A stretch of 33,317 bases of DNA from Candidatus Micrarchaeota archaeon (GCA_038046605.1 JBBSVW010000069.1:1-33317), one strand, 5' to 3'. Shown: positions 12,335-30,849, numbered from the stretch's first letter. Notes: a model not told the origin generated them from the sequence alone. Made by a program: numbers and translations.

Positions 12335-12350
12335 ATAAGGCAAGCAACGA

Positions 12351-12398
12351 TCAGGCAAATTGGGCATTAGGTAAACTGGGAATTGGGCAAACTAGGTT
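12351..12398. repeat. Three imperfect 16-bp tandem repeats
   Basis: TCAGGCAAATTGGGCA / TTAGGTAAACTGGGAA / TTGGGCAAACTAGGTT. Confidence 0.55.
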
Positions 12399-12405
12399 TT
12401 TCCAT

Positions 12406-12876
12406 ATGAAAATAGATTTCAAGGGCAGGTTTTTGATGCTGGCAGGGATGTTCGAAAATAGGCGGTATGCCATGAGTTTTGGGATGCTTTTTACCATCCT
12501 CCTTGGCGCCTATTTCTTGATGTCTGGGACATTCCTTCTCTCGCTCATGCAATTCAATGAGTCCGCAGAAATGCCATTTGTGGCACTTCAGGTTTTGATT
12601 GCGCTCCTTGCCGCCATCCAGCTTTCAATCATGCTCAATTTCGGCGGAAAGAAGGGGGATTTGGCCGGCGGGTTTGTGGCATTGTTTGCCTCCGCGTGCC
12701 CGGTATGCGTCCCCCTTTGGATTTATGCGCTGGGCCTTGGTGGGTCCCTTGCGTTTCTTTCCGATTTTTCATTGGCGATGGGTTTATTTGCAGTTGCGCT
12801 CTTGGCATATTCATTATGGAGATGCCTTGATCCGCAGTGCAAGGTGATAAAATATGAAAAAAGTGTTCTTCGTTAA
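12406..12876 (+). CDS. Four-TM membrane protein with CPVC motif (probable start 12406)
   Basis: Hydrophobic; ASACPVC; additional C-terminal Cys residues; overlaps the start of the HMA gene. Confidence 0.75.
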   Translation: MKIDFKGRFLMLAGMFENRRYAMSFGMLFTILLGAYFLMSGTFLLSLMQFNESAEMPFVALQVLIALLAAIQLSIMLNFGGKKGDLAGGFVALFASACPVCVPLWIYALGLGGSLAFLSDFSLAMGLFAVALLAYSLWRCLDPQCKVIKYEKSVLR

Positions 12877-13066
12877 AGGGATGCATTGCAACAGCTGCAA
12901 TTGGCTGATTTCCGAGAATGTGAAGGAAATCAAGGGCGTGATCGCGGTAAGCGCGGATTTCAATAAGCGCGAGGCTGTGGTGGAATTCGATAGCCCGGCT
13001 ACGGAGGCGCAGATCACCAAGGCGATCGAAAAGGAGGGCGGGTACAAGGTGCAAAAAATAAGCTGA
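12854..13066 (+). CDS. copZ: Heavy-metal-associated (HMA) copper chaperone
   Basis: VKGMHCNSC; 70 aa; GGTGAT RBS. Confidence 0.9.
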   Translation: MKKVFFVKGMHCNSCNWLISENVKEIKGVIAVSADFNKREAVVEFDSPATEAQITKAIEKEGGYKVQKIS

Positions 13067-13155
13067 AAAAAATATCCGGGTATTTGGAAATAATCCTGGG
13101 AATTGCCATTCTTGGGAATTCTCCTTCAGGCAAATAAATTCAAAATGGTGATAAA

Positions 13156-14070
13156 ATGGTCGAAAAGGATGTTTACATTAGGGAGCTTAACTGCGAAGCA
13201 TGCGAAAGGCTGGTGGAGCGGATCGCCATTAGGCATTCCGTCAAGCTCGAGGATGTTGATTTCTCGCAAAAGCGCGCAAGGCTTAGCGGCGAAACCTCGC
13301 AAATGGAAGCAATGGCGCAGGAACTTGAGAACATGGGCTATTCCACATCATTCGAAAGGGTCCCAAGGAGCGGCAAGGGCAAAATGCGCCTTTTCAATTT
13401 CATCAAGGGTTCCATTTTCGGCGAGGAGAATTACCAGGCTGAATCAAAGGGTGTCGAGCTTTTGGTTTACACCTTTGTCCTTCTAGCGCTTGCAACCATC
13501 GCGCTGGGCTTCCTTGGGATTTTATCACCCCAATACATGGGCTATTCGTTCCTTTCACTGATTTCAATTGTCATGATCATGCCCGTAGCCTACCAGGTTG
13601 AGGCATTCCGCGACTCATTTACCCACATGAATGGCATGATGATTGGTATGACCATAGGAATGTCGGCAGGTTTTCTTGCAGGCGCAGTAATTGGAGCAAC
13701 AAATGGCATGTTCATGGGCAGTGTCTATGGCATGCTTATTGGAATGGCAGCCGGCGCCTATCTGGGTTACTGCTGCGGCATCATGGGAGTGCTCGAAGGC
13801 ATGATGGGGGGGCTAATGGCTGGCACCATGGGCGCGATGCTTTCGGTCATGATGGTATTTGACAACCTCAATTTCTTCCTTCCAATCCTTCTTGCCAGCC
13901 TTGCCTTCATCATGTTCGGCCTAAGTTACATGATACATAAGGAAAATTTGGGCTTTAAACCCGAGAAGGTGCCAATTTGGAATTTCCTGGCGCTTTCAAT
14001 TCTCGTCCACATCGCGACAATAATTGTGATGGTTTACGGGCCCAAGTCGGCGGCGGTTTTAGTTGGGTAA
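13156..14070 (+). CDS. HMA domain fused to a Met/Gly-rich multi-pass membrane domain
   Basis: LNCEAC; HMNGMMIGMTIGMSAG, GMFMG, YCCGIMGVLEGMMGGLMAGTMGAM. Confidence 0.85.
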   Translation: MVEKDVYIRELNCEACERLVERIAIRHSVKLEDVDFSQKRARLSGETSQMEAMAQELENMGYSTSFERVPRSGKGKMRLFNFIKGSIFGEENYQAESKGVELLVYTFVLLALATIALGFLGILSPQYMGYSFLSLISIVMIMPVAYQVEAFRDSFTHMNGMMIGMTIGMSAGFLAGAVIGATNGMFMGSVYGMLIGMAAGAYLGYCCGIMGVLEGMMGGLMAGTMGAMLSVMMVFDNLNFFLPILLASLAFIMFGLSYMIHKENLGFKPEKVPIWNFLALSILVHIATIIVMVYGPKSAAVLVG

Positions 14071-14089
14071 AAAATTATTAATAAATAGG

Positions 14090-14162
14090 ATGTGAAAAGA
14101 AGAGGAGAATGGGGTGTTTGAGTAATAGCACTCCCCCCATCCGCATTTTCACATATTTTTTT
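14090..14162 (+). terminator. Hairpin followed by a T tract just upstream of the copA RBS
   Basis: ATGTGAAAA/TTTTCACAT, ATGGGG/CCCCAT and GAGT/ACTC pairings, then T7. Confidence 0.4.
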
Positions 14163-14174
14163 AGGTGAAAAAAC

Positions 14175-16415
14175 ATGAAAGCGAAATTTGACATCATTGG
14201 AATGCACTGCGCAACCTGCAGCCTTAGGATCACAAAAGCCCTCACAAAAACGCCTGGGGTCCTTAAAGCTAATGTGAATTATGGCTCGGAAAAAGCAGAT
14301 GTGGAATTCGACGAATCAAAATGCACAATTCCCGATATGGTCCGCGCTGTTGAGGCGCAGGGCTACAAGGCAATCCCCTCGGATGGGATGGGCATGGAAG
14401 AAGGCAATATGGGAATGGGAGGCATGCATTCTGGAAAGGCCAATATGCAAGGCTCAGGCCACAATCATGCCGAAATGCTCCGAAAGGAGGAGTTCGAGCT
14501 GCTGAAAAAAAAGGTGCTAGTCGCATTCGCCCTATCAATCCCCGCCTTTCTTGTTGGCATGTTTGGCATGGAATGGGCAAATCAAAAACTCATATTGTTC
14601 ATCCTAGCCACACCGGTGCAGTTCTGGGCTGGCAAGCAGTTTTACGATGGCGCAATTTCCGGGCTTAAGTTCTGGCAGGCAAATATGGATACCCTAATTG
14701 CAATGGGCACTTCCGTTGCCTATCTCTATTCCGTCGCATCCCTATTTGGCTTTGTTGCGGAGCAATACTTCGAGATTGGGGCGATCCTTATTTCCTTCGT
14801 GCTCCTAGGCAAGTATCTGGAGGCATTCACCAAGGGCAAGGCAAGCGAGGCCATAAAGAAGCTCATGGGGCTTACGCCCAAAGTAGCCGTAGTCATCCGC
14901 AAGGGCAGGGAGATGAAAATCCCAATCGAGCAGGTGATCGTGGGCGATCTTATCCGCGTTAGGCCCGGTGAAAAAATACCGGTTGACGGGGTTGTTGTTG
15001 GCGGTGATTCAACAGTTGATGAATCCATGCTTACTGGAGAATCCATGCCGGTTGAGAAAACCAAGGGCGCGAAGGTTTTTTGCGCAACCATTAATCGGCA
15101 CGGGACAATCACATTCAAGGCGGAAAAGGTGGGCAAGGATACGGTCCTCTCCCAAATTGTGAAAATTGTCGAGGAGGCGCAGGGCACGCGCGCTCCCATC
15201 CAAAGGTTTGCGGATGAGATTTCGGCATCCTTTGTGCCTGCCGTCATAGTAATTGCCATCATCACATTTACTGCATGGATGTTCCTTGGGCAGCCCTTCC
15301 ATTTCGCCTTGCTTGCGGGTGTTTCAGTTCTTGTGATCGCCTGCCCATGCGCACTTGGGCTTGCAACTCCAACCGCAATTATGGTGGGAACCGGCATGGG
15401 CGCAGAAAAGGGCATCCTCATAAAGAACCCCGAAGCACTTGAGCGCACCGGAAAGATCAATGCAATTGTGTTTGACAAAACCGGAACGATCACGCAAGGC
15501 AGGCCGCAGGTAACTGAAATTATTTCCCTTGGCAGCCTTAAAGAAAAAGAAATCCTGAAAATTGCAGCCTCCATTGAAAAGCCTTCAGAACATCCGCTGG
15601 CAGAGGCGATCGTGCTAAGGGCGGAGGAGGAAAAATTGGCGCTATCAAAAGTGGCTTCCTTTAACGCAATTCCAGGAAAGGGGGTAGGGGGCAAAATTGG
15701 CGCCATCCACTATTTCATGGGCTCCCCAAAATTAATGAAGGGAAAAGGGGCAGGCATGGCAAAATTGGAAGCGCTTGAACTCCAGGGCAAAACCGCAATG
15801 ATTTTGTTTGAAGGAAAAGAGGGCGGAAAGCTTAAGCCCCTTGGGATTTTGGCGGTACGCGATGAGCTAAAGCCAAATGCCAAGCGGGCAGTTGAAAAGC
15901 TTAGGAGAATGGGGATTGAGTCTATTCTGCTAACCGGCGATAATGAACGGACCGCAAAGGCAATTGCAAAGGAGGCCGGAATCCGGACCGTAATTGCAAA
16001 CGTGCTCCCCCAGGAAAAATCCAAGAAAATTGGTGAGCTGCAAAAAACCGGAAAGGTCGTTGCCATGGTGGGTGATGGCATCAATGACGCCCCAGCGCTT
16101 GCAAAATCCGATGTCGGGATTGCCATGGCCAGCGGCACTGACATAGCAATGGAAAGCGGCAGCATCGTCCTCATGAAAAATGATGTCGAGGATGTGCCGC
16201 GCTCACTCAATTTGGGAAGGAAGACACTCTCGAAAATAAAGCAGGGGCTTTTCTGGGCGCTCATTTACAATGTGGTTGGCATTCCGGTTGCAGCCGGAGT
16301 TTTCTACTCCTCAACCGGATGGCTGCTTTCCCCGGCAATTGCGGGCGCCGCCATGGCAATGAGCTCGGTTTCGGTTGTGCTCAACGCGCTAACCCTGAAA
16401 TTAGAACGGCTCTGA
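14175..16415 (+). CDS. copA: Cu(I)-translocating P1B-type ATPase
   Basis: GMHCATC HMA domain, Met/His-rich linker, [31 protein letters not shown]. Confidence 0.97.
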
Positions 16416-16519
16416 GGAAAATCCCCATTGCGGATCTTTTCGGAAATTACCCGCCCCATATCAGGTTTTAAGATTGCCTTCAGGTTTGTTTTTTTAAATA
16501 CGCCTATCATAACAGCTAT

Positions 16520-17923
16520 ATGGCAAGCAAGAATTTGTCCCGGATAAAAAATACCCTAACTCCCTTTACCGCATTCCTGATTACTGCGCTAGCCGCCCTG
16601 CTTTTCCTATCCGTCCTTAGGGCATCCTTGTTTACTGAAGTAAACGAGGAAAAGAAAATATGGTTCGAGTTAAGTTTCCTCCTCTTTGCCGCCATTTTGG
16701 CCGAGCTTCTAGTTGTTTATCTAAGGCAACCGACCGTAATGGTGCTTTTGCTTCTTGGCGTTGCCATAAGCCCAAGTGCAATTGAAATATTCTATCCCTT
16801 TGCCTTTGGGCTATTGGTTTTTGCATTTGCCGTATTTGGCGTTGCACTGCAAAGCGCATCACAGCTGCCGCATCTTGTTCCAACTGAGGGTGTTGTTAGG
16901 ATTTTTGCCCAGCTTGGGGCAATCCTTCTGCTCTTCAAGATCGGTCTCCATTCCGAAATAAAGCAAATATTCAATTTGAAAAACCTGATTGTGGGCCTTC
17001 TTGGGGTGGTTATCCCATTTGCAGCAGGTTTTTACTACGCTTCCGTTACGGGGCATGGATTTAGCTATTCCATGTTCCTTGGCGCCGCGCTTACTGCAAC
17101 AAGCGTTGGGGTTACCGTTGCAGTCCTGCAGGAGCTTAAGGCCATGGAAAAGGAATTTGCGAAGGTTATTTTGGGCGCTGCCGTTATTGATGACATATTG
17201 GCGCTTTTGGTGTTGAGCCTGATAAACAACTTTCCAACCGAATTGAACGTGCAAACCTTTTCGCCGCTTTTAATTGTCCTTCTGACCGCTTTCATTTTCG
17301 TGATTGGAGGCATTCTTCTAGGGAAAGCCATTGTAAAAAGATATTTCGACAGGGATTTGGGGGCAAAGGTTATTTCCAATACGGCCTTCCTTGGGATCCT
17401 TGCATATGTGCTTGCCTATTCCCATGCCGCCGAATTCATCGGCCTTTCCGCAATTGTAGGCGCGTTCATTGCAGGAATAACCCTAAATTACAGCAAGCTT
17501 ACTGAAAAGCTCTTTTCCCTCTTTTACCCCCTTGAGGCGTTCTTCACCCCTATATTTTTCATTTCGCTTGGAATGCTGGTTGATATTCCTGCCCTTATGG
17601 AAAATCTTTTCCCGATACTGATCATCACTGCAATTGCCATTCTGACCAAAATCGTCGGCTGCGGCATAGGGGCCTTCCTGACCGGAACTAAATTGAAGGA
17701 GGCAATAGTCATAGGCATTGGCATGGTTCCGCGAGGGGAAATTGCACTCATCATCGGATTGTTCGGGCTCACTGCAATAGGCGCCGATGGCAATTCCATC
17801 CTAACTGATTCCGAATATTCCATCATCGCATCAATGGCATTCATCACGACAATAATCATTCCCTGGCTGCTGAAAAAATCCCTTTCATGGGCAAAAATGG
17901 CAAAAAATGCAAAAATGAAATGA
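16520..17923 (+). CDS. Cation:proton antiporter (CPA2, NapA/KefB-like)
   Basis: About 13 TM segments; ATSVG, AAVIDD, FFISLG, GMVPRGE. Confidence 0.93.
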   Translation: MASKNLSRIKNTLTPFTAFLITALAALLFLSVLRASLFTEVNEEKKIWFELSFLLFAAILAELLVVYLRQPTVMVLLLLGVAISPSAIEIFYPFAFGLLVFAFAVFGVALQSASQLPHLVPTEGVVRIFAQLGAILLLFKIGLHSEIKQIFNLKNLIVGLLGVVIPFAAGFYYASVTGHGFSYSMFLGAALTATSVGVTVAVLQELKAMEKEFAKVILGAAVIDDILALLVLSLINNFPTELNVQTFSPLLIVLLTAFIFVIGGILLGKAIVKRYFDRDLGAKVISNTAFLGILAYVLAYSHAAEFIGLSAIVGAFIAGITLNYSKLTEKLFSLFYPLEAFFTPIFFISLGMLVDIPALMENLFPILIITAIAILTKIVGCGIGAFLTGTKLKEAIVIGIGMVPRGEIALIIGLFGLTAIGADGNSILTDSEYSIIASMAFITTIIIPWLLKKSLSWAKMAKNAKMK

Positions 17924-18022
17924 TAATGATTGGATGATTGGCAATCTAACGCTGGGAAAAGCAAATTCAATTATTCTGCCTCAAATGGAAAAAAGGCTTA
18001 ATGGATCAATGATTGATAATTT

Positions 18023-18235
18023 ATGCCAATAACAGCAAAAAGGTTTATCGTGCTAGGCATTGACTGCGGATCCTGCGCCACCACCATTGAAAAGGCGCTA
18101 CGGAAGATGGATGGGGTAAAGCGGGCCGACCTCAATTACAACACTGCCCGGCTTGAGGTTGAATTCGAGGGAGGCAAGGAGGCGGAAAAGAGGATAATTT
18201 CGAGGGTTCGGGTGCTAGGTTATAAGATTGCGTAA
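18023..18235 (+). CDS. Second stand-alone HMA domain protein
   Basis: GIDCGSC...IEKAL...GV...LGY; 70 aa. Confidence 0.88.
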   Translation: MPITAKRFIVLGIDCGSCATTIEKALRKMDGVKRADLNYNTARLEVEFEGGKEAEKRIISRVRVLGYKIA

Positions 18236-18552: not shown

Positions 18553-19304
18553 TCTCCTTTCGTCAATCTATATCCGACGAACATTTTTGGAAATATCTGC
18601 TCGAGCACTGGGCTAAATCCCCTCCTGTTTAGGTTTGAAATTTTCCTTGCAATAGCCTTAGGATTGGGATTTCCCGTAAATACCGGCTTTAAAGCATCGA
18701 TTGCCTCGGGATGGTACTCCGCTTCGCCATTCAATGTTCTCTTCAAGTATTTACGGTATTCCTTTGTTAATACTTTTGCGAATTCAGTTGGATCCTTTGG
18801 TTGAGGATGGTCTGCTGGTTCCCCTTCATGAGTTAATGGTATAACTTTGTAACCCGCGTTTTCCGATTGTTTTATTAGGCGATTGAAAGCGGATGGATGG
18901 AAAAATAGTGAAGAGGGAAAAATCGTGATTTCATGGAAATCCTCAGTTTTAGGAATTTGGAGATGATCTTTTAACTGTGTTAAACCCCTTGAAATGAGGT
19001 AAAAAATTGAAACTGGCGTGACTGGGGTAATAAGGGGCTTTTCAGTTGGTAAGCCAAAAGTGTCCAAATTCAAGCTATGCCGATACCTCCCCGTTGGCAA
19101 AACCTCCCTTTCATATGCGTATTGTGCGGAAAATGATGTAGGATGCGCCAAGACAAAATCATTATAGGGTTTTGAGCTTACAAGGAGGCGCGAGGATTTG
19201 CTAGCCTTCGAGGCAGCGTGCGGATACACCGTTATCCTATCCTCGTGAAAAACCATATTGCCCCTTTGTTTCATATAGCTAGCCTCGTTCATAAAATAAT
19301 TCAA
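18549..19304 (-). CDS. Hypothetical protein (start uncertain)
   Basis: 251-aa ORF filling the gap; no motif recognised. Confidence 0.6.
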   Translation of the reverse strand: MNYFMNEASYMKQRGNMVFHEDRITVYPHAASKASKSSRLLVSSKPYNDFVLAHPTSFSAQYAYEREVLPTGRYRHSLNLDTFGLPTEKPLITPVTPVSIFYLISRGLTQLKDHLQIPKTEDFHEITIFPSSLFFHPSAFNRLIKQSENAGYKVIPLTHEGEPADHPQPKDPTEFAKVLTKEYRKYLKRTLNGEAEYHPEAIDALKPVFTGNPNPKAIARKISNLNRRGFSPVLEQIFPKMFVGYRLTKGE

Positions 19305-19342
19305 TGTTGAAAGATAATTAAATACCCCTGATTAATGGTTTC

Positions 19343-20161
19343 ATGGCAAATTTGATGGTAGGAGATCGCGATGTACGAAAAATAAGCATCCCTGCAAAAA
19401 ATTCCCACAAGGGGCAAAATGGCATACTTACCATAATTGGCGGCAGCACGAAATACCATGGGGCGCCTCTCCTAGCAATCAAGGCCGCGAGCCGGTTTGT
19501 CGATTTGCTCTATTTCCATTCACCGGAAAAAAGCAACATGGAGCTTTTGCATTTCCTCAAAGGGCATAAGTGCACTTTCATTGGAATTGATGCGAAGGAG
19601 CTGGATAAAACCATCCAAAAATCCGATTGCGTGCTGATTGGGAACGGAATGGAAATCAACCCGGCGAATAAAAAATTGCTCAACTCCCTCCTGAAAAAAT
19701 ACTCCAAAAAGAAGAAGTTTGTGCTGGACGCGGGAGCGCTGCACATGGTGGATAAGAAATTGTTGAATTCCAACGTCATCATTACCCCCCACATTCTGGA
19801 ATTCTACGCGCTTTTTGGGAAAAATGCAAATAAGGCAAGTGCGCCCGGAATGGCTAAAAAATACGGCTGCATCGTTCTCCTCAAGCACCCCGATGGTGAT
19901 CTGATTTCTGATGGGAAATCCCTCTTCATCAACCAAACCGGGAACGAGGGGATGACAAAGGGCGGGACCGGCGATACACTGGCAGGCCTGTGCGCGGCGC
20001 TCGCGTGCAAAAACAGCTTATTCCTGGCTGCCAAATGCGCCGCCTACCTTAATGGTCTCGCTGGCGACCTGCTGAAGAAGGAACGCGGAGTGCATTTCGA
20101 TGCGGATGATCTGGCGGACTATTTTGGGGTTGCATTCGAGATGGCACTGGAGAAAAAATAA
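19343..20161 (+). CDS. nnrD: ADP-dependent NAD(P)H-hydrate dehydratase (YjeF C-terminal domain)
   Basis: SHKGQNG, IGGS..YHGAP, IGNG, VLDAGAL, ITPH..EF, KGGTGDTLAG. Confidence 0.93.
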   Translation: MANLMVGDRDVRKISIPAKNSHKGQNGILTIIGGSTKYHGAPLLAIKAASRFVDLLYFHSPEKSNMELLHFLKGHKCTFIGIDAKELDKTIQKSDCVLIGNGMEINPANKKLLNSLLKKYSKKKKFVLDAGALHMVDKKLLNSNVIITPHILEFYALFGKNANKASAPGMAKKYGCIVLLKHPDGDLISDGKSLFINQTGNEGMTKGGTGDTLAGLCAALACKNSLFLAAKCAAYLNGLAGDLLKKERGVHFDADDLADYFGVAFEMALEKK

Positions 20162-20189
20162 AGGTAATTAGGGCATTTTCGGAGGTCAT

Positions 20190-20242
20190 AGAGGTAAAAA
20201 CAGCACAAAAAGCCTTGAATTGCGTGTTTTTTAAGCAATCAC
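20190..20242. repeat. Dispersed repeat, copy B (copy A at 1-54)
   Basis: See copy A; immediately preceded by CAT (a minus-strand ATG at 20189). Confidence 0.85.
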
Positions 20243-20522
20243 GTAAATTTTTTTGTCAGCCACCATAACATCAAGCAATAACGCCCCTTCAATAAATAGT
20301 CAATAACTATAGCGAATAAGGCAATTATTGGAACTTTTTGTTGCCTTATTCTAATATAGCGGTCATATTTGATTGTTCCATTATTTTACTTAACCGCTAT
20401 ATAACCAACCCATCAGCTCCGCATCCCAACATAAAAGGTAATATCAATTGAGATTGAAGCGCTTTAAATTGATTTGGATATATACAACTTTCGCTCTGCA
20501 CCAATTTAAAAAACTCTTCAAA

Positions 20523-20783
20523 TTATCCCATCGCCTTCCTATACGCTTGATGCACCGCCGGCGTCAATTTCCAAACCCGGCTATTCTTCTGCCCCTTCTC
20601 AAAGCTCACTAGCTTCTTTCCATGCACATTTTCCAGGAGCCTTGAAACGAAATGGTTGTTTCTGCCTATCGCAATTGAAATCTGCCTTATTGTGCATTCC
20701 TCAGGAAACCCATAATTATCGTAAAGGTAGCCAAGTATCTGCTCCATCACTTTGGTTTCGGTTTGGGGGGAGACTTTGGACAT
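20523..20783 (-). CDS. Small winged-helix DNA-binding protein, coupled to AbiEii via TAATG
   Basis: ILGYL...TIRQISIAIGRNNHFVSRLLE...KKLVS...VWKL. Confidence 0.75.
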   Translation of the reverse strand: MSKVSPQTETKVMEQILGYLYDNYGFPEECTIRQISIAIGRNNHFVSRLLENVHGKKLVSFEKGQKNSRVWKLTPAVHQAYRKAMG

Positions 20784-20786
20784 TAT
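20739..20786. repeat. Cassette-junction repeat copy 1 (5' end of the small HTH gene)
   Basis: 47/48 identical to 22914-22961. Confidence 0.95.
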
Positions 20787-21937
20787 TTCACTTCTTTATA
20801 CCAAATGGAATTCAAAAGGTTTTGAGCTGCATATGCAATTTGTTCATTGGGGTCATTCTTTAGTTTCTCCAACCGTTTTTCGATGTTTTGTACCTTCCCA
20901 TTCGCCAAACTGCTTGCCGAGACAAGAGACTGGAGAAGGTTTAAACCAAATACTACTTTCGTAGGGTTACTCTGCTTTGTTAGTGCAATTGCCACATCAA
21001 TTACTGGGGCTATTGCCCTCTCATTTTTTGCTGCTATCCGTGCCAAAGTTAAGATATGGGTGTGCGTTTCATCTCCAACTTCAATTTTGTAAGCTAATTC
21101 CATCCCTTCGATGTACTGCTGTATCTCATCCGTCACTTCATCGAAATCTGGCAATTCGTTATCCTTTACTAAATGTTCCAGGCTGGATTTCCAATACTTT
21201 TGCGCTTCCCGCAGTTTGGAAGAGGTCATGAAATTCGGGTTGTAGGTGAAATTGTTGCTGCTGCACTTCTTTATTATGAAAGGGCGCAATTCCAGCAAAT
21301 CAAAGTTCCCTTCGCGGAGAAGCCTCCAAACATCATAAAAGTCCCGGGCCTTGCCCCTATCCATCATGGCGCATACTTTCTCAACCATAATTTCTTTTAG
21401 GGGATATGAGAGCACTTTGATTGGCGGAATATCGGGGTAATCACCCTGCAGTTCCCTTGTTTCCGGTTCAAAGAGCAACTTTTCAGAAAATTTCAGGTCG
21501 AATTTTACCCTTCCAATGAAAACATCAACTTTGTACTGGATGTCGGACGAGATCATACCCGGATTGGCATGATAATCATCCAATTTCAAGTAAATGCCGC
21601 TCTCCTCATTCAAATCTTTCAACACAATATCCTCCAAAAATTGCTTCAGGCCCCAGTTTTTCCTTCCTGAAAGCATCTCGCCAACCTGTTCAAGCTGGGG
21701 ATTTTCAATGCCGATAAAACTGAAGTCCAGGTCCTCGGATAATCGCCATACCTGCGGAAAGTGCACTTTTCTTATTGATGTCCCGCCTTTGAAAACGAGA
21801 TGCTTATGCATCGGGTATTTTTGCGAATAGAATCCCTTTAGGAGCCATTCCAGGACATAATCCTTTGCCAGGGCCTCTGCACTTATGCCACGTTCCTTTG
21901 CAAGTCGGGTTATTTCAAGTTTAGTAAGCACGGACAT
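20783..21937 (-). CDS. AbiEii-family nucleotidyltransferase toxin (type IV TA) with a ~105-aa C-terminal helical extension
   Basis: KDY, FKGGTSIRK, RLSEDLDF, EKV, RDFYD. Confidence 0.9.
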   Translation of the reverse strand: MSVLTKLEITRLAKERGISAEALAKDYVLEWLLKGFYSQKYPMHKHLVFKGGTSIRKVHFPQVWRLSEDLDFSFIGIENPQLEQVGEMLSGRKNWGLKQFLEDIVLKDLNEESGIYLKLDDYHANPGMISSDIQYKVDVFIGRVKFDLKFSEKLLFEPETRELQGDYPDIPPIKVLSYPLKEIMVEKVCAMMDRGKARDFYDVWRLLREGNFDLLELRPFIIKKCSSNNFTYNPNFMTSSKLREAQKYWKSSLEHLVKDNELPDFDEVTDEIQQYIEGMELAYKIEVGDETHTHILTLARIAAKNERAIAPVIDVAIALTKQSNPTKVVFGLNLLQSLVSASSLANGKVQNIEKRLEKLKNDPNEQIAYAAQNLLNSIWYKEVK

Positions 21938-22760
21938 CTCCCTTTAAGGTTTTTTCATCGACATTTATTAGAAGCTTCCATTTGTAAGAATATTTCCCTT
22001 TCGGGCCTAGAATTGGATCGAGCTTCGAATATCCCTTTCCCTTGTTCCTTATTGAACGCAATACTTTTTCTGAAAACGGGTTCCCCACCAATTCAAGAAG
22101 GAAACCGAACCTTTTCAAAGCGGAAACGTTTCCCAATTTCTTCCCATACTCTAGCACTTTTTCAGCGGAAAAGTCGATTTTTCCCTTGAATGCCTTCAAC
22201 ACCTCCTCAATGCCGCCGCAGTATTCCGGATGATCCAGGCAATCAATTATTGTTTTTTCCTTGTCAGAAACGATTACTTTGGTGTCGCCGAAATTTTTTT
22301 CCCTGGTCCCGAAAAACTTTTTCTTTGAAATTGTGATGAACTTGAACCTGCCCGCCATTATCTTCCTGTTTTTTACCCTCTTGGTTGTTGCAATAAATGT
22401 AGTAAAAGGCACCTGCTCTGTGAAGCCGTAGCTGTTCAGCATGCTCCAATATCCGATATAATAGGGTTCGGCAAGCCTTGACCCTAACACAAAGTCGTAA
22501 TCTGTATGCGTTCCTTCCGTTCCAGCCGATAAAGGGACGATCAGATACTGCCCCCGGACCAACTGGACGAGCCATTTCTTTTTTACAAGCCTGTTCGCGG
22601 TCTTGGTTGCATTGGCGTAACTTATGGGGAAGGAGCCAAGGATGTCCTTGATTGTGATTACCGACCTGCCTTTGGCTGAAAGTTTCGACAGGAGGTACGT
22701 TTCCTTCTTCGACAGCCCTTCTCTTATATTCTTTGTATTTTTGATGACACTTTCTGACAT
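21921..22760 (-). CDS. AbiEi-family antitoxin / transcriptional regulator
   Basis: N-terminal wHTH, RGQYLIVP, PYYIGYWS, YGFTEQVP, SDKEKTIIDCL, KRFGFLLE. Confidence 0.9.
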   Translation of the reverse strand: MSESVIKNTKNIREGLSKKETYLLSKLSAKGRSVITIKDILGSFPISYANATKTANRLVKKKWLVQLVRGQYLIVPLSAGTEGTHTDYDFVLGSRLAEPYYIGYWSMLNSYGFTEQVPFTTFIATTKRVKNRKIMAGRFKFITISKKKFFGTREKNFGDTKVIVSDKEKTIIDCLDHPEYCGGIEEVLKAFKGKIDFSAEKVLEYGKKLGNVSALKRFGFLLELVGNPFSEKVLRSIRNKGKGYSKLDPILGPKGKYSYKWKLLINVDEKTLKGDVRAY

Positions 22761-22859
22761 GAGTAGTACATAAAATATAAAGATTTAAAAGGGTTTTGGA
22801 AGTTCACTTCGGCTGCCTTGGCTATTTGTCAGATAACTTGATTATATGACAATTTTGCC

Positions 22860-22958
22860 TTAGAGCGATATCCTTGCAAGCTTTAGCTCCGGCGCAACAA
22901 AGGGCCGGCGCAGCTGCTCCATTACTTTGGTTTCGGTTTGGGGGGAGACTTTGGACAT
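22860..22958 (-). pseudogene. Truncated copy of the small HTH gene (contains junction repeat copy 2, 22914-22961)
   Basis: MSKVSPQTETKVMEQ followed by unrelated LRRPFVAPELKLARISL*; TAATG-coupled to the second AbiEii. Confidence 0.8.
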
Positions 22959-23803
22959 TATAGACCATCCTTTAGGGACTTTTTCAAACCATCAATTAAC
23001 CCCCAGTTGAAATAGCCACTCCCTAGCAACGAATCTTTTAGTTCAGCAATTAATTTGTCAAAATCCGGCAGCTTTTTGACCTGCCCGCCCACTTGTTTCT
23101 CATAATAGGCTTTGGATGACTCAACTTTGCTTGTTTCGAACATGCCGGCAATTCCGGTAAATTCGATATTTTTGTACTTAACTTTTTTATCAAATATTTG
23201 CCGCACTTCTTTAAAGTCGATACGGCTTTTCGCTTTGGTCATAAGATACCAACAGTCATAGTAATCCCTTACCCTGTTCCGTTGTAGCAGTGATCTTAAT
23301 TTTTCAGCAAGTATTTCTTCAAGCGAATAAACCAGGATTTCGAATTTTTTATCATAATATGAATTGATTACCTTCCTTTGCTCGGGTTCACCAACCAAAA
23401 CCTCATCAGAGGAAACATCAATTGTGATCGTATTCTTCTGACCCTGCAAACCCATGAATTGGACTTTAATATCGGAGAACCACTCGCGCTTGTAAACACT
23501 CTTGATATTGAAGCTTGCGTTGTATTCCTTCTTGAGATATTCGAAAATTCCTTCTAAACTGGCCTTAAGCTCGCTTTCAGTTATTTTCTCCTTCAGCATG
23601 AAATCCAGGTCTTCAGAATAGCGATAATTCTCGAAATAGATTTTCCTTAAGGCCGTACCGCCCTTGAAAATCAGGGCCTTTCGTAATTTTGGGGTATTGG
23701 CTACCCCGTCAAGAAGCAAGGTAAGGAAGTAGTCCTTTTCTACTGTATTCCATAAAACCCCCTCTTCTTTTGAGATTTTTGTAACTATTTGAGGTAAGAT
23801 CAT
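22958..23803 (-). CDS. AbiEii-family nucleotidyltransferase toxin, second copy
   Basis: EKDY, FKGGTALRK, RYSEDLDF, AEKLRS, RVRDYYD. Confidence 0.92.
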   Translation of the reverse strand: MILPQIVTKISKEEGVLWNTVEKDYFLTLLLDGVANTPKLRKALIFKGGTALRKIYFENYRYSEDLDFMLKEKITESELKASLEGIFEYLKKEYNASFNIKSVYKREWFSDIKVQFMGLQGQKNTITIDVSSDEVLVGEPEQRKVINSYYDKKFEILVYSLEEILAEKLRSLLQRNRVRDYYDCWYLMTKAKSRIDFKEVRQIFDKKVKYKNIEFTGIAGMFETSKVESSKAYYEKQVGGQVKKLPDFDKLIAELKDSLLGSGYFNWGLIDGLKKSLKDGL

Positions 23804-24612
23804 AATTCAAGTTTCAGCTCTTTTAATGGTATATTCTCAATTATTTTCCATTTCTTATCCTTCCTGCCACCCTTCGGCCCGCCGGTGTCAAGAAGGCAAT
23901 ACCCGCCCCCGACCCTCTTTAGGAGTTTATCCTTTATTGGCGTTTCTATTTTCAACCCATCAAGCAAAAATCCAAGGCGCTTTACTACTGCGGGATTTTC
24001 CATTTTTAAGGCATAATCATACAGCTTATCAAAATCGAGCTTTTCCCGAAATGCCTTGACAACTTCGGTCATTCCTTTCGAATATTTTGGGAGGAAGAGG
24101 CAGTCGATCAGCGTTTTTTCCTTATCTGAAATCCTGATTTTAGTATTCTTTACCCATTCCTCCGTAATCCCGAAGAAGCGTTTTTTAGGCACGGAAACAA
24201 AACGATATTCCTGCCCCTGGAAATGCATTGGCCGCCTGCGCTTTGTTGATGCGATGAAAAGCGTTTCATTTGGCTGTTCGGAAATCCCATAATGGTTAAG
24301 TGCGGTAAAAAATCCGATGTAATAGGGCGAGATAAGTTTGCCCGCAAGCAGAAATGGATGCATTCCATATTCGCCCTTGGGCCCGGCTTCAATTGGGATT
24401 ATGATATATTTTCCGCGTTCTATGCGTTCAACCCATTTGCTCTTGTGCAAATCGTGCAAAAGCTTCCTCAATTTACCGCTTTTGAAACCAGACGCCGCGG
24501 CTGCCTCCGCCATATTGAATATTTCCTTTCCGTTTGCGCTCAAGCTTGAAAGTAGCCTAATTCCCTGCGAACTTACACCCCGCCTGATTCTGGGCTTATG
24601 TTTTGTGTGCAT
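23800..24612 (-). CDS. AbiEi-family antitoxin, second copy
   Basis: RGKYIIIP, PYYIGF, YGISEQP, SDKEKTLIDCL, KRLGFLLD; ATGA overlap with the toxin gene. Confidence 0.9.
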   Translation of the reverse strand: MHTKHKPRIRRGVSSQGIRLLSSLSANGKEIFNMAEAAAASGFKSGKLRKLLHDLHKSKWVERIERGKYIIIPIEAGPKGEYGMHPFLLAGKLISPYYIGFFTALNHYGISEQPNETLFIASTKRRRPMHFQGQEYRFVSVPKKRFFGITEEWVKNTKIRISDKEKTLIDCLFLPKYSKGMTEVVKAFREKLDFDKLYDYALKMENPAVVKRLGFLLDGLKIETPIKDKLLKRVGGGYCLLDTGGPKGGRKDKKWKIIENIPLKELKLEL

Positions 24613-24709
24613 ATTATGTCAGTTTTAGTAACTTAAGCAACATGAATATTTAAGTAAACATAATTACTTTTATAGTAACTATACGCGCATAGATATATTT
24701 AAGCATTTT

Positions 24710-24734
24710 GGTTGGGGGGAGAGACTTTGGACAT
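24710..24734. repeat. Cassette-junction repeat copy 3 (degenerate)
   Basis: GGTTGGGGGGAGAGACTTTGGACAT vs GGTTTGGGGGGAGACTTTGGACAT; reads MSKVSPPNQNA* on the minus strand. Confidence 0.8.
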
Positions 24735-24808
24735 AAAAATCAGCAAATTCCTATGTGGCGCATTTGAGCGATCCGCAGCAAATTTTAAGCGTATTTTGTG
24801 GGGTTGCC

Positions 24809-26092
24809 TCAAGTGAGGAGCGCTGCGATGGCCTCGTGAGATCCCAGCAGCACCTTCCATAATGGGATTCGGGGAATGTCGCCTTTTTCCGAGTCCATCT
24901 TAGTGATCATAACCCCCTTCCAGCCCTTCCTATGCTCGAGGAAGAATTGCAGGTTCCTTTCATCCGCACTTGTCAAATGCGCCTGATACTTCACTTCAAT
25001 TGCAACCTTTTTCCCGGGCAATAGCAGGTCCACCTCGTGCCCTTCAGGGGTTCGCCAGAAAAATTTAGCATCCAAAGCATTTGCAGCTGCATTTTCCGCA
25101 AGCGCTCCAATAGGCACATCCGGCCGCAGCGCATGAAGCACCCCGGTATCGGCGAAAACTATCTTCTTGGAGGTGCGCCTTTGTTTTATGATGGAAGGCG
25201 TATGATTGTATATGGTCCGGAGCAGCAGAGTTTTTTCCAACAGTGCAACCTGCGTTGCCACAGTAGGATGGCTTACGCCCAGCACCTGCGCGAGGGGCTG
25301 GAGCTGATACGTCGAACCTGCAGTGCCGGAAAGCAGCTCGAGCGATTTAAATAGGAGGTCGGGATTCGCGCTGGGAAATGCCGCAGGGAAATCCTTGTAA
25401 AATAATGGGCCCAAGAGCGATTCCCTGACGTATTTGGAACGCTCATTCTCATCGGCCTCCAGGGTTATTTCAGGCAAGCCGCCGGCTAAAAGGTATTCAT
25501 TGCATTCCGCTTGCAGTTCCCCGGCCCTTCGCGCCCTTTCGTGCCCGCTTCCTGCGTAAGCCTTTTTTCCCTTCGCAAGCAACCGTTCATTCAGGCTGAA
25601 GGGGGTGACATTGATTATCTCAAACCGCCCCGCAAGGCTCTCCGCAGTGCGCTTATCGAATTCTATCGCCGAACTGCCGGTGGCAACGAATTTGACGTCG
25701 GTGCGGTCGTAATGCCGCTTGAGGACATCTTGCCATTTGGGCACGAAAGGCACCTCGTCCAAAAAAATAATTTTCGCACCCTGCCCCTGGAAGTAATTCA
25801 ACAGCGAATCCAAATCTTCAGGAGTTGCGTTCATGGCCCTATCGAATTCGAACCACGCAATTTCCTTGGGTTCCCCAGCTTCGCCCAAAAACCTGATGAG
25901 CAATTGCTGCGCGAGCACTGACTTGCCCGTCCTTCGCAGCCCTCTTAAAACCGTGATGTATTTTTTCCTTGCTGACCTTTGCAACGCCGGAAATGCCTCC
26001 CTTTCGATGAGCCGCCCTCCAATCCGCTTGATCGAGAACTGTCCGGCCTCCCAATGCCCATTTTGCAATAATGCTTCTTTCACAAAATCCAT
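24809..26092 (-). CDS. AAA+ ATPase (AAA_14) with DUF4143 / PD-(D/E)xK-like C-terminus
   Basis: GLRRTGKS, FLDEV, TGSS, LAGR, GGLPE, KIVFADTG, FWR...EVD...IEVK. Confidence 0.92.
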   Translation of the reverse strand: MDFVKEALLQNGHWEAGQFSIKRIGGRLIEREAFPALQRSARKKYITVLRGLRRTGKSVLAQQLLIRFLGEAGEPKEIAWFEFDRAMNATPEDLDSLLNYFQGQGAKIIFLDEVPFVPKWQDVLKRHYDRTDVKFVATGSSAIEFDKRTAESLAGRFEIINVTPFSLNERLLAKGKKAYAGSGHERARRAGELQAECNEYLLAGGLPEITLEADENERSKYVRESLLGPLFYKDFPAAFPSANPDLLFKSLELLSGTAGSTYQLQPLAQVLGVSHPTVATQVALLEKTLLLRTIYNHTPSIIKQRRTSKKIVFADTGVLHALRPDVPIGALAENAAANALDAKFFWRTPEGHEVDLLLPGKKVAIEVKYQAHLTSADERNLQFFLEHRKGWKGVMITKMDSEKGDIPRIPLWKVLLGSHEAIAALLT

Positions 26093-26093
26093 A

Positions 26094-26133
26094 TTATGAA
26101 AACCAAACTTTCATAAACTGGAAAGCTTAAATA
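26094..26133 (-). promoter_or_regulatory. TATA-like box plus palindromic operator upstream of the AAA ATPase
   Basis: TTATGAAA-N7-TTTCATAA (26094-26116); TATTTAAG on the minus strand at 26126-26133. Confidence 0.55.
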
Positions 26134-26170
26134 CCTTTCGGAAGGTAAAATCCGGGAAAACAAGCGGAAT

Positions 26171-26282
26171 TTGAACGGTTTCTCCTGCGATCTGCTAAAA
26201 AAAGGATTGCGGAACGCATTTCGATGCGGATGATCTGGCTGATGCCATTCCAATTGCATGCCAAAAGGGTATTGGAAAATAG
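26171..26282 (+). pseudogene. Displaced duplicate of the nnrD 3' end
   Basis: LNGFSCDLLKK (+1 shift in the A run) DCGTHFDADDLADAIPIACQKGIGK* vs nnrD LNGLAGDLLKKERGVHFDADDLADYFGVAFEMALEKK*. Confidence 0.85.
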
Positions 26283-26365
26283 GGAATGGAAATGGGCGGG
26301 TTATTTGGTTAAACTCTGCTAGGTGCAATTAGCAAATATCAAACCCGAATTGCCCCATTCCCTAT
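26279..26365. terminator. Long hairpin between convergent units
   Basis: ATAGGGAATGG/CCATTCCCTAT perfect 11-bp arms; inner CGGGTT/AACCCG and ATTTG/CAAAT. Confidence 0.5.
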
Positions 26366-26373
26366 CATCCCCC

Positions 26374-27243
26374 TTAGAGCTTGAAGGGCAGGATGTAGTA
26401 TAAGGACATTGCAAGGAGCGCAAAGAACACAATCGGCGGCAGCGCCGGCCAATACCCCTTCTTTTTTTCAATGTAGAAGAAAAGCAGGCTTATCCCGAAT
26501 GTGGCCCCCAGGGCGGCGGCCATGGAATACCAGAAGCCTATCTTCAAGGCGGAAACAACCAACATTGCGGGAATGGCAAGATCACCAGTCCCCAGCTCCA
26601 CGGCGCCCAGAACTTTCTTGGTGTACATCTTCTTGAGCCTATCCGCCTGTTTTTTGGGCAGGATTTTTCCCTTCAAATCGGATGGGAATGTTATGCTAAA
26701 GCCCGCCTCCCGTTCACCCAGCTCCTTTGCAAGCGTCACCATGTGCTTTGTGTAGAAAACCGCCACCACATCATACACTGAAAGCGCCATGGCGAGGATG
26801 GCCGCCGGAAGAATGTCCAACGAGGCGCCCAATAGTGCGCCCACAATCGCGCTCGCAAAAAGGAGGAAGATATTTTTGTAGGATGGGTAAATAACTCTTA
26901 GGACAACGGCAGCTATTCCAAGTATCAATGCCCAAGAAATGGCAAAATCCCCCGGAAGCACCAGGTCCGGAAAGGGCATGAGCGCAAAAAAGATGCTAAA
27001 TGAAACAAAGACCATGGAAAGCTCCAAAAGGTAGAAGAGCATTTTTCCCTTGTAGAATTTGAGCAGAACAAGGATGCCAACGGCTGCCGCCAGGATATAG
27101 CCAAATAGGAAGGCGGAATTCCCAACATCCGATGGATCCTTAGTTACGCTAACCTGCGCAAGGATGAACAGCCATCCGACAATTATTGCAAGCAATTGCA
27201 CGTTGATGAACGAGAGCAGTATGTAGAAGGATCCGGTTTTCAT
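26374..27243 (-). CDS. Presenilin/signal peptide peptidase-family GxGD intramembrane aspartyl protease
   Basis: SVYD, TKHMVTLA, LGTGD, PALP; about nine TM segments. Confidence 0.93.
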   Translation of the reverse strand: MKTGSFYILLSFINVQLLAIIVGWLFILAQVSVTKDPSDVGNSAFLFGYILAAAVGILVLLKFYKGKMLFYLLELSMVFVSFSIFFALMPFPDLVLPGDFAISWALILGIAAVVLRVIYPSYKNIFLLFASAIVGALLGASLDILPAAILAMALSVYDVVAVFYTKHMVTLAKELGEREAGFSITFPSDLKGKILPKKQADRLKKMYTKKVLGAVELGTGDLAIPAMLVVSALKIGFWYSMAAALGATFGISLLFFYIEKKKGYWPALPPIVFFALLAMSLYYILPFKL

Positions 27244-27378
27244 TGTTTTGCACCTTGAAAAGCATGGTTTATGCTGAATTTGATAATTTCACGAAATGGG
27301 CGATTTGGAATGGATTTGATCCAGATTTACCGGGCAATCGTATTTTCATTTTTAATATTAATGCTTGTTCCATTCTTT

Positions 27379-27663
27379 CTAGCCCTTCCCGTCCCCGTAT
27401 TTCATGTGGTAAAAGTAGCTGCCTCCCAAAACAAGCAGGTAAACAACGAATACCATAATCGTATTGATCGGGATCCTAAGGAGGAAATTCAGGAAGAAGA
27501 TGATCAGCGGAGGGATTGTAAGTGAAAAAGTAAGTGAATAGACCGCCCTTTCAATGGCGTCCGCCTCATTTTTCCGGAAGAACACAAACGAGAGGAAATA
27601 GCCGGCTGCAAAGAACAGTGCCAGCCCCACAATTGCCTGGATGGCGCCAACAAAATCGACCAT
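27379..27663 (-). CDS. Small three-TM membrane protein (DUF1616-like)
   Basis: GY.LS.VFF...DAIERAVYS..FS...P pattern. Confidence 0.7.
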   Translation of the reverse strand: MVDFVGAIQAIVGLALFFAAGYFLSFVFFRKNEADAIERAVYSLTFSLTIPPLIIFFLNFLLRIPINTIMVFVVYLLVLGGSYFYHMKYGDGKG

Positions 27664-29076: not shown

Positions 29077-30819
29077 TTAGATTATCCCCCTTTCAATAAG
29101 GTGTTGCCTAACCCTTGCATAGATATCGTTTTCGACCAAGGAGGTTAGCACTTTGGAACTGGGCTTTGCTGCAAATCCCCTGAAATCAAGAATTGCCTGG
29201 TTGGGAATGCCCTTCTGCAGTGAATATGGCTTTCCATCAACCAATAGTGCGCTTAACTTGAGCCCCTTTTCAACCCCAAAATGCGCAATTGCCGCCTCCC
29301 TTCCGGTGGCGCCGCTCCTTATGGCAATAGGAACCATCTGATCCCCTTTCCTGAAAAAGACAATGTTGTGATCCTCCCAGAGGCGCTCTTTAATTATGTT
29401 GAGGCCCGATTTTTCCCCAGTTTGGACCATGTTCCTTAGCATGTTGAACCTATCCTTGATGATTTCATCAACCGAGGTAATACCTTTCCTTGCCGTAGGG
29501 TGCAGGGCAACGCCCATTTCGGCGATTTCGTCCATTTTCTGGGTGCGTATGTGGACCTCAATCAAATTCTGTGGGTTTCCATCGACCGCAATGCGATAGT
29601 GCAGCGCCCTGTAAACTCCACCCCTTGGATTTTTGATGTAATCCTTGTGGAGAGTCACGTTATGCGCTCCGTATTGCTTGCGCAGCAAAACACCTGTCTT
29701 GTAGACGCTGTTCATGTCCTTTTCGACAATCGTGAGCGCGGTGCTGTCGTAAATATGGGAAAGCGCTTCCGAAAGCAGGCTGTCGGGTATGTCTACTCCG
29801 ATTTTTGGCGTATGCATCTGGCTTTGCCCCCTGAACCTGTCCACCTTGGATAGCCCCTGCTCAATTCTGGACACAAGCATATTGAATGTGGGTTTCTTCT
29901 CACCAGCCCGGTACATCCTGACAAGGTTATTGTGAGTGTTGTACCTGAAATATTCCTCCACTTGGCTTTGGATTTCCGCCCTTTCCGCTACAGTGCTCGC
30001 CTCGGTATGCGCCTCCTTCATCCCATATAGGAAAGCCCTTTCATCGTCTATTTTGGCAGGAGAGGTGTGTTTTGAATTGCTTAGGATTTTAAGCGCTTTC
30101 CTGTACGCGCTAAAAGCGGTCTTGCCCCTCGCCCTTGATGCAAGCACCGTAATGCCCCGTTTTTGCAAAAAATTGACTATAATCTGCCGCTGTGATTCTG
30201 CCTTTTTCTCGTTATCCTGCGTTTTCCCAACTGACCGCTCGACCTTGGCATGGATGTCCGGATAGAGCCGCTTGAATGCTGCCTCCTCCAGGTCCCTTTG
30301 TATTGCGCGTGGCATTATCCAGTCGGCGATTGGCGAGTAAATCATTAGTGCGGATCTTGCCATTGCCCTCATTTCACTTTCAATTGCTAGGCGCTTGTCG
30401 CGCTTCATTTTGGATGTATCCATAGGATGCATTAGCCTGTCGCGGATGTCAAAAATCCTTACCATGAACGCAAGCGGATTTCGGACCTTGTCGGTTTGCT
30501 TAAGGAATACACTCAGGTCATCTTGCCTTTCCAGGTGCTTTAGCCTTGAAGCCAGCGTGAAGTAATCTGCGTGCAAAGATTTTTCGCTGTCGGACTTATA
30601 CGGGGCGGTATCCAATGGAAGGCCATGATTATGCAAAACCCGAACAACAGACGGGGGCATGTTGAATCGGTATGCCGTGCGCGCCAGCCTTTCGTAATGG
30701 GGATCGTAGTGGCCTTTAAGGGCGCCATAGAGCTTGGTTCCTACCCTGATTTCCGCATCGAGCACGTCCTTTTTTAGGACCTCATCCAAGATTGCGAGGC
30801 TTTTCTTTACGGGTGACAT
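29077..30819 (-). CDS. Divergent long RelA/SpoT homologue (degenerate HD domain, SYNTH domain with large insert, TGS-like domain)
   Basis: DRL...IYSPIA...LEEAAF; RGKTAFSAYRK; IYD; KDYIKNPRGGVYRALH; EVHIRTQKMDEIAEMGVALH; SGAT...VDGK (TGS-like). Confidence 0.85.
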   Translation of the reverse strand: MSPVKKSLAILDEVLKKDVLDAEIRVGTKLYGALKGHYDPHYERLARTAYRFNMPPSVVRVLHNHGLPLDTAPYKSDSEKSLHADYFTLASRLKHLERQDDLSVFLKQTDKVRNPLAFMVRIFDIRDRLMHPMDTSKMKRDKRLAIESEMRAMARSALMIYSPIADWIMPRAIQRDLEEAAFKRLYPDIHAKVERSVGKTQDNEKKAESQRQIIVNFLQKRGITVLASRARGKTAFSAYRKALKILSNSKHTSPAKIDDERAFLYGMKEAHTEASTVAERAEIQSQVEEYFRYNTHNNLVRMYRAGEKKPTFNMLVSRIEQGLSKVDRFRGQSQMHTPKIGVDIPDSLLSEALSHIYDSTALTIVEKDMNSVYKTGVLLRKQYGAHNVTLHKDYIKNPRGGVYRALHYRIAVDGNPQNLIEVHIRTQKMDEIAEMGVALHPTARKGITSVDEIIKDRFNMLRNMVQTGEKSGLNIIKERLWEDHNIVFFRKGDQMVPIAIRSGATGREAAIAHFGVEKGLKLSALLVDGKPYSLQKGIPNQAILDFRGFAAKPSSKVLTSLVENDIYARVRQHLIERGII

Positions 30820-30849
30820 TTGTACCAACCCTATATAGCTTATTAACCC

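Follow-up and report, generated by a model that had tools for sequence, protein, structure and literature searches.

The genome of a Candidatus Micrarchaeota archaeon (GCA_038046605.1) contains a locus in which the start of one small gene is found three times, always in the same orientation and directly behind a defense-type gene, and we asked how such an arrangement could have arisen. The locus lies on the 33,317-nt stretch JBBSVW010000069.1:1-33317, which was analyzed at its full length and is called the window below. The repeated start belongs to a gene for an 86-aa helix-turn-helix (HTH) protein, which is intact at 20523..20783 on the minus strand, the strand of all genes within 20.5-26.1 kb. 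Copies of the start are present on this strand at 20783, 22958 and 24734, with spacings of 2175 and 1776 bp, and the intervals between them are occupied by toxin-antitoxin (TA) pairs of the type IV AbiE system. Probably, if far from certainly, recombination across a discrete 45-bp site at the gene start would have inserted the two AbiE cassettes in sequence, with the enzyme acting in trans.

Three gene starts and two AbiE units

A repeat search of the window returned a 48-nt pair, 20739-20786 and 22914-22961, with 47 of 48 positions identical, and a 28-nt family with three members, at 20756-20783, 22931-22958 (100%) and 24707-24734 (82%, ungapped). A 14-mer from the gene start occurred exactly three times in the window, as opposed to 0.01 expected occurrences, and this count was reached in 0 of 100 shuffles. 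The gene-start 28-mer was present twice with 0 mismatches (0.00 expected). Copy 1 of the repeat (20739..20786, minus strand) is composed of the 3 bases ahead of the ATG and gene bases 1-45. Copy 2 (22914..22961, minus strand) is a stub of the HTH gene that ends after codon 15 and gave a 16-aa match in tblastn, whereas copy 3 (24707..24734, minus strand) is a decayed stub that aligned to gene bases 1-28 at 26 of 29 positions with one gap, a score equaled in 0 of 500 shuffles. A preliminary description of this DNA had reported three gene starts, the one at 22958 being a 47/48 copy. All three are present, and the 47/48 value is correct, but the third copy extends over bases 1-28 only. The displaced 3' part of the gene was not found anywhere in the window (tblastn, E<=100), and alignments to HTH-gene remnants in the spacers, or to a stub upstream of the ATPase gene described below, did not exceed the chance level. 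As in integrative elements, each unit is bounded by direct repeats of a gene end (the HTH 5' end, copies 1-3), and the target gene is restored.

Both intervals contain one upstream region and one complete abiEi-abiEii pair, as the preliminary description had proposed, with Pfam and PADLOC in agreement. Interval 1 encodes the 384-aa nucleotidyltransferase toxin AbiEii-1 (20783..21937, minus strand; PF08843, E 3.9e-31; PADLOC AbiEii, E 1.6e-62) and the 279-aa antitoxin/regulator AbiEi-1 (21921..22760, minus strand; PF09407, E 3.7e-7; PADLOC AbiEi, E 6.1e-80), whose match to PF13338 fell under the curated cut-off (18.1 versus 25 bits). Interval 2 encodes the 281-aa toxin AbiEii-2 (22958..23803, minus strand; PF08843, E 2.2e-38; PADLOC, E 2.6e-75) and the 270-aa antitoxin AbiEi-2 (23800..24612, minus strand; PF09407 and PF13338 above cut-off; PADLOC AbiEi, E 4.2e-81). 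As in known AbiE type IV systems, both units consist of a gene with the AbiEii (DUF1814-type) toxin domain and an upstream abiEi that overlaps it, by 17 nt in unit 1 and 4 nt in unit 2. A BLASTP alignment showed that GGT and SEDLD, the nucleotidyltransferase motifs, are retained in both toxins, and the names Micrarchaeota, Woesearchaeota and Nanoarchaeia occur among the relatives of AbiEii. Both toxin open reading frames (ORFs) stop on the A of the ATG in the repeat, which creates the TAATG overlap noted earlier and seen here in both the coordinates and the sequence; in unit 1 this ATG is the start codon of the intact HTH gene. To our knowledge, the two-gene AbiE system as described does not include a third gene for a winged-helix protein that overlaps the toxin stop.

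The two pairs have little sequence in common. Identity is 31% between the toxins and 39% between the antitoxins, in contrast to 98% for the repeat, and the contrast drawn in the preliminary description is therefore real. The best PADLOC sub-models are nevertheless the same for both pairs (PDLC02304 and PDLC02267). Among the nearest relatives of toxin 2 is P0020, a 196-aa Joint Genome Institute (JGI) metagenomic protein, which shows 88% identity over the C-terminal 196 residues of this toxin and shares its final residues. For both P0020 and P0004, a relative of the HTH protein, the source on record is a single 2204-nt JGI contig. If this is one and the same contig, it would place a toxin-2-like gene near the small gene, which is the predicted one-cassette state. 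Cluster records list toxin 1 on 1 contig and toxin 2 and the HTH protein on 3 contigs each, numbers that would indirectly fit alleles without unit 1.

Unlike described AbiE toxins, toxin 1 has a C-terminal extension of about 100 aa (20786-21085, minus strand) that reaches the repeat. The extension had no Pfam match at E<=5 and was uncovered in the best 120 relatives, none of which spanned more than 73% of the protein. A TATA-like TTTATAT motif was read by eye about 20 nt ahead of the abiEi-1 start.

The gene that precedes copy 3 encodes a 427-aa ATPase with AAA_14 and DUF4143 domains (24809..26092, minus strand; PF13173 and PF13635). Its stop codon lies 74 nt upstream of copy 3, and the gene belongs to the same structure as the TA units. 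Residues 27-417 of the ATPase matched the PADLOC model PDC-S01 (E 1.9e-49), a full-length match by which its defense role is that of a candidate.

The 86-aa protein is rare. At E<=1e-3, only 4 sequences, the window's own included, were found among 5.8 billion proteins, and a collection of 1.84 billion yielded 12 representatives. The protein could not be placed in any Pfam or NCBIfam family, and a tblastn search of plasmid and phage collections with it returned no match. An AlphaFold model built from 14 sequences had a predicted local distance difference test (pLDDT) score of 86.6 and the topology H-H-H-E-E-H, and its best matches in the PDB, from an E value of about 6e-5, were the repressors MepR and SmtB and members of the MarR and ArsR families. 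The language-model neighbors of the protein were small winged-helix regulators and unnamed DPANN clusters. As modeled, the protein is a minimal winged-helix DNA-binding protein of the MarR/ArsR type and is most likely a dimeric transcription regulator. Nothing in these analyses marks it as an excisionase.

A related locus and the 45-bp segment

We searched species-representative genomes (596 Gb) using four close sequences. The scan gave 41 pattern matches, about as many as the approximately 40 chance matches that we estimate for an 8-residue pattern in 596 Gb, and one locus (L001) was confirmed. It belongs to a metagenome-assembled genome of Candidatus Micrarchaeota and contains a single copy of the site, in a small gene whose product is 89% identical to the window's protein over residues 1-83. 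No AbiE gene was found within the 20 kb examined. The small gene is instead preceded, after a gap of 51 nt, by a gene for a 483-aa ATPase of the AAA_14 plus DUF4143 (PDC-S01) type, which matched the PDC-S01 model over its full length (E 7.1e-67) but is only 25% identical to the ATPase of the window, against 89% for the small protein. The neighborhood is also different, with ribosomal proteins and SUI1 on one side and an ArgZ-like gene on the other. The expectation that orthologues of the HTH gene would have different genes upstream was thus borne out in this one relative (n=1 locus), where the site is occupied by other cargo and no TA pair is present.

Two segments were shared by the window and the related locus in blastn alignments. 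One was the small gene itself (84% over 254 nt). The other was the promoter- or operator-like upstream region of TA unit 1 (22799..22905, minus strand), which is 80% identical over 107 nt to positions 8298-8402 of the related locus (E 2e-19). In the window this region starts 8 nt past copy 2, and in the related locus it lies upstream of the ATPase gene. A conserved left flank and a conserved right flank, the latter formed by the small gene, thus enclose different cargo: abiEi and abiEii in the window, an ATPase gene in the related locus. The shared region contains a palindrome, one copy per locus, at 22826-22852 of the window and 8350-8375 of the related locus, with identical 11-nt arms and a spacer of 5 and 4 nt, respectively. 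The most economical candidate for its ligand would be the winged-helix protein, because AbiEi is absent from the related locus and no other DNA-binding protein is common to both loci.

Other inverted repeats were seen in the related locus. A pairing of the palindrome half-site with HTH bases 53-69 (14/17) was dismissed as chance, being one of eight similar pairs in 5 kb; 11 of 18 positions of it are conserved in the window by eye count. Two more were noticed by eye: a perfect 9-bp inverted repeat (9960-9984) in the 51 nt that separate the ATPase gene from the winged-helix gene, and a second 9-bp inverted repeat (8415-8440) that surrounds a TATA-like motif upstream of the ATPase gene.

The conservation of the small gene is not uniform along its length. 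Gene bases 1-45 are identical between the window and the related locus (10001-10045) at 45 of 45 positions, as opposed to 162 of 204 for bases 46-249 (Fisher P 1e-4; this and the following P values are rough because the compared sequences are related). At third codon positions, the corresponding numbers are 15/15 in the block and 41/68 after it (P 0.0013). The first difference between the window and the related locus is found at codon 16, and copy 2 diverges after codon 15. Four close relatives showed the same pattern in their proteins, with 59 of 60 residues identical in the first 15 aa and 203 of 272 in the remainder (P 3e-6). In ten distant relatives, identity in the first 15 aa (55/150) was not significantly higher than in the remainder (218/680; P 0.16), and the extra conservation is therefore not a family-wide constraint on the protein. 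The 45-bp segment, which is also the one duplicated in the window, behaves as a discrete unit at the DNA level, one in which synonymous change is also resisted, and it is either a functional site or a stretch repeatedly homogenized by exchange. The comparison of genomes provides good evidence that the winged-helix gene begins with a discrete 45-bp docking site, preceded by different defense-type cargo in different genomes, and the interpretation in the preliminary description is thereby partly supported.

Formation of the array

We propose the following sequence of events. The base unit would have consisted of a PDC-S01-type ATPase gene followed by the small winged-helix gene, and two AbiE cassettes, each with its own upstream region, would have been inserted successively into the first ~45 bp of the latter. 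An incoming unit, presumably circular, would carry the 45-bp segment (behind its toxin gene), the upstream region, abiEi and abiEii. In a Campbell-type insertion, the 45-bp segment of the cassette would recombine with the resident gene start, and each such event would leave a 5' stub upstream and rebuild an intact gene downstream. This model reproduces all of the junctions, from stub to upstream region and from toxin to rebuilt gene, as well as the lack of a displaced 3' half. TA unit 2 would have been inserted first, because the stub of copy 3 is decayed (the 2204-nt contig probably points the same way), and TA unit 1 later, because its stub retains 47 of 48 positions. The proposal in the preliminary description that the newest unit lies beside the intact gene agrees with the position of copy 3, the oldest-looking stub, farthest from that gene. 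Overlapping the newest toxin gene by TAATG, the rebuilt gene would probably be co-transcribed and translationally coupled with it, using the promoter of that unit. The reaction could be short-homology recombination by the host machinery, or it could depend on an unrecognized recombinase encoded elsewhere in the genome. The repeats, the gene content, the other occupant of the related locus, the upstream region common to both loci and the fully identical 45-bp block are observations, and we infer the circular insertion, the order of events, the co-expression, the target of the regulator and any present-day mobility.

A more ambitious version of this scheme, which we regard as unlikely, is an undescribed cassette-capture platform of DPANN archaea. 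Its docking site would be the 45-bp coding start, at which self-promoted AbiE and PDC-S01 cassettes would be exchanged by a recombinase acting in trans, and the winged-helix protein would be a palindrome-binding regulator or directionality factor. On this scheme, the level of the winged-helix protein would report cassette occupancy, because its gene would always be re-coupled to the newest cassette.

Several observations weigh against insertion at a dedicated site. No stub was recognizable to the left of the shared upstream region in the related locus, where the best score was matched by 373 of 500 shuffles, and this counts against a strict cassette model because such a model predicts a stub there. 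Identity in the upstream region common to both loci is 80%, as opposed to 100% for the 45-bp block, and the two were not simply transferred together in recent times. Copy 3 covers bases 1-28 and not 45, so that it marks either an older junction at another point or a site that has since lost sequence. Short stub ORFs were not found in the protein collection (1 candidate, unscored), only one independent DNA locus is available, and the arguments from contig counts and contig size are indirect.

The search for a recombination apparatus was negative as well. No integrase, transposase or recombinase domain was found with Pfam in the 62 ORFs scanned across the 33-kb window, as the preliminary description had stated for integrases. 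DNA folds of the junction regions gave no attC-type hairpin (z -1.03 and +0.91), no arm pair was found at the junctions in an inverted-repeat search, and inspection by eye revealed no inverted core sites of the R''/R' type. The best dif-like dyad (11-nt arms, 4-9 nt spacer) matched at 6 of 11 positions in both copies, a value that 987 and 990 of 1000 shuffles also attained. A Xer/dif module of the IMEX or pdif kind, with a site of about 28 bp and two 11-bp inverted arms, was rejected on this result. In the absence of a hairpin or dyad, a classical tyrosine-recombinase core is not evident.

The main rival explanation dispenses with a dedicated site. Complete modules, each made of an upstream region, cargo and an HTH gene, would have been placed in tandem, either when HTH paralogues underwent ordinary homologous recombination or through island insertion, with the upstream HTH copies later deleted to stubs and the 45-bp identity produced by gene conversion or recent exchange. 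We consider this possible but not likely. In its favor, the related locus has a complete, stub-free module, the lack of a stub being accounted for, the stubs are of unequal length (45 and about 28 bases), and neither a recombinase nor recombinase-type site architecture was found; tandem integration and homologous module exchange have been described in archaea (PMC8371274). The difficulty lies in the junctions. The ends of the deletions would have to match both the end of the 45/45 block (first difference at codon 16) and, within 8 nt, the start of the region shared with the related locus. No trace of the deleted 3' parts is left, and both toxins have the TAATG overlap despite an identity of only 31%. 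Another alternative is an ancient tandem duplication of a TA pair plus stub, with the 45-bp segment maintained as a regulatory or translational-coupling element needed behind the toxins. In its favor are the overlap of each toxin stop with the ATG of the segment and the best PADLOC sub-models shared by both pairs. We judge it very unlikely. Duplication followed by divergence is a poor fit because proteins that are 31-39% identical stand beside a 47/48 stub, and such a combination would need extreme selective constraint on 48 bp. Copy 3 follows the ATPase gene rather than a toxin gene and is decayed, which indicates that stubs are not maintained. In the related locus, the segment also follows an ATPase gene, with a 51-nt gap. 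Further, the two units differ in GC content, and toxin 2 resembles its nearest relatives, such as P0020 (88%), far more than it resembles toxin 1.

An assembly artifact, in which strain variants with different cassettes ahead of the same gene were merged by way of the 48-bp repeat that they share, seems less credible still. The sequence is probably metagenomic, and the presence of the toxin 2 and HTH clusters on 3 contigs and of toxin 1 on 1 suggests that variants may coexist. The junction of copy 2 with the upstream region and that of toxin 1 with the intact gene must, however, both be present on actual molecules, so that at least one molecule holds two copies. The one-base difference between copies 1 and 2 shows that the repeat was not collapsed, and common metagenome assemblers generally finish with k-mers longer than 48 bp (the record of the related locus carries k141). 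An integron cassette array without an integrase (CALIN) is the least plausible of the alternatives and hardly to be entertained. Its appeal is in the cassettes of one orientation parted by a repeated element, and in the facts that TA cassettes are common in integrons and that most reported archaeal integrons are CALINs (PMC9668308). The repeat, however, coincides with the coding start of a gene, and neither it nor its surroundings showed an attC-like hairpin. Among the window ORFs scanned there was no intI, although a CALIN would not need one, and Micrarchaeota are absent from the text of PMC9668308. The term integron-like, used in the preliminary description, can be kept as an analogy only, given that no attC hairpin, dif-like dyad or intI was found. 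Insertion at the 45-bp site remains the explanation we favor.

Island setting and known systems

The segment from 20.1 to 26.2 kb would be a small defense island in a DPANN-type archaeal chromosome, a placement consistent with the DNA similarity to the related locus, with archaeal-type genes such as that for the presenilin-type peptidase and with the archaeal names among the AbiEii relatives. On one side it is bordered by nnrD (NAD(P)HX dehydratase; 19343-20161, plus strand; Carb_kinase, E 3.8e-41), which is intact and convergent with the winged-helix gene. A segment of the nnrD 3' end (20075..20118, plus strand) recurs at 26199-26242 with 86% identity over 44 nt. This second occurrence is part of a frameshifted nnrD-like pseudo-3' end of about 36 codons (26171..26282, plus strand), which forms the distal boundary of the island and corresponds to nnrD residues 236-271 in two adjacent frames (tblastn E 1e-7 and 0.007, plus a DNA alignment). 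A 6.1-kb block, comprising the spacer, the small gene, TA unit 1, TA unit 2 and the ATPase gene (20.1-26.2 kb), is thus enclosed by the intact and the displaced nnrD 3' ends. Such a pair of ends is the customary mark left when DNA is inserted at the 3' end of a gene, and the block looks like an insertion of this kind into nnrD, which would add a second level of gene-end duplication outside the first.

The AT-rich spacer (360 nt, GC 0.34) that lies downstream of the small gene, before the convergent nnrD, contains two strong hairpins, at 20314-20351 and 20354-20402, with stems of 12 and 10 bp (RNA fold z -5.17, reached in 0 of 200 shuffles), which could be terminators or the end of an element. 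A search of positions 19000-27500 against Rfam gave 0 matches at E<=1. The GC content is 0.39-0.44 in the TA genes and 0.526 in the ATPase gene, compared with 0.476 for the window, and the parts of the island therefore differ in origin, as expected of a mosaic.

No tRNA gene was found in the window, and the flanks of the island are chromosomal, with genes for alanyl-tRNA synthetase, a P-type ATPase and a presenilin-type peptidase (PF06550). Adjoining the alanyl-tRNA synthetase gene is a gene for a 583-aa protein with a RelA/SpoT nucleotidyltransferase domain (29077-30828, minus strand; PF04607, E 9e-14). A metal-handling cluster at 11906-18235 encodes a cupredoxin-like protein, a heavy-metal P-type ATPase with an HMA domain (14175-16415), a Na+/H+ exchanger and a small HMA protein. 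Positions 299-4096 (minus strand) encode a predicted surface protein of 1265 aa with NosD/beta-helix, laminin-G-like and Ig-like domains.

In structural terms, the array would correspond to an att-flanked, integrase-less accretion of cassettes at a gene end. In streptococci, integrase-less, cis-mobilizable elements accrete site-specifically beside integrative elements. The resulting tandem units are bounded by one attachment sequence at a gene end, and the inner units need an enzyme supplied in trans. In comparison with streptococcal accretion, the array has no known partner element with a cognate integrase, and its site is without a recombinase-type core. [quoted passage not shown] Like the array, they supply a new promoter and 5' coding end that keep the gene intact, have direct repeats at their junctions and can occur two in tandem, and some of them carry abortive-infection genes (PMC8409611). 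They span tens of kb, however, and bring their own tyrosine integrase and directionality factor, whereas the units described here are composed of a TA pair and an upstream region in 1.8-2.2 kb. The target is also unlike dusA in being a tiny regulator gene, the host is archaeal and the 33-kb window has no integrase.

Integron arrays and CALINs, those of Archaea included (PMC9668308), share with this locus an ordered series of small cassettes in the same orientation, with the newest at the insertion point, a frequent TA or defense content and, often, the lack of an integrase. The array differs from integrons in having no attC hairpin, attI or intI, in cassettes that bring upstream regions and in a repeat that is the start of a coding gene. 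For archaeal elements, tandem integration and integrase loss are both described (PMC8371274). Literature on AbiE in DPANN archaea or Micrarchaeota, on AbiEii cassettes with direct repeats and on DUF4143 defense contained no such array in its titles and abstract openings.

The distribution of these defense genes gives the locus a wider context. DPANN archaea are reported (PMC12988326) to have tiny genomes with few CRISPR or restriction systems and to be enriched in AbiE and PDC systems, with an excess of AbiE and of single-gene candidate defense systems. The same paper notes a particular abundance of PDC-S01 in Archaea and a lack of experimental validation for most PDCs. If the array instead consists of tandem modules with deletions, it is an ordinary small defense island. 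If insertion at the 45-bp site is the true explanation, a short docking site would explain how defense genes can be swapped cheaply in DPANN genomes, and the 45-bp site together with the palindrome would provide a key with which metagenomes could be searched for cargo, including, perhaps, unknown defense genes.

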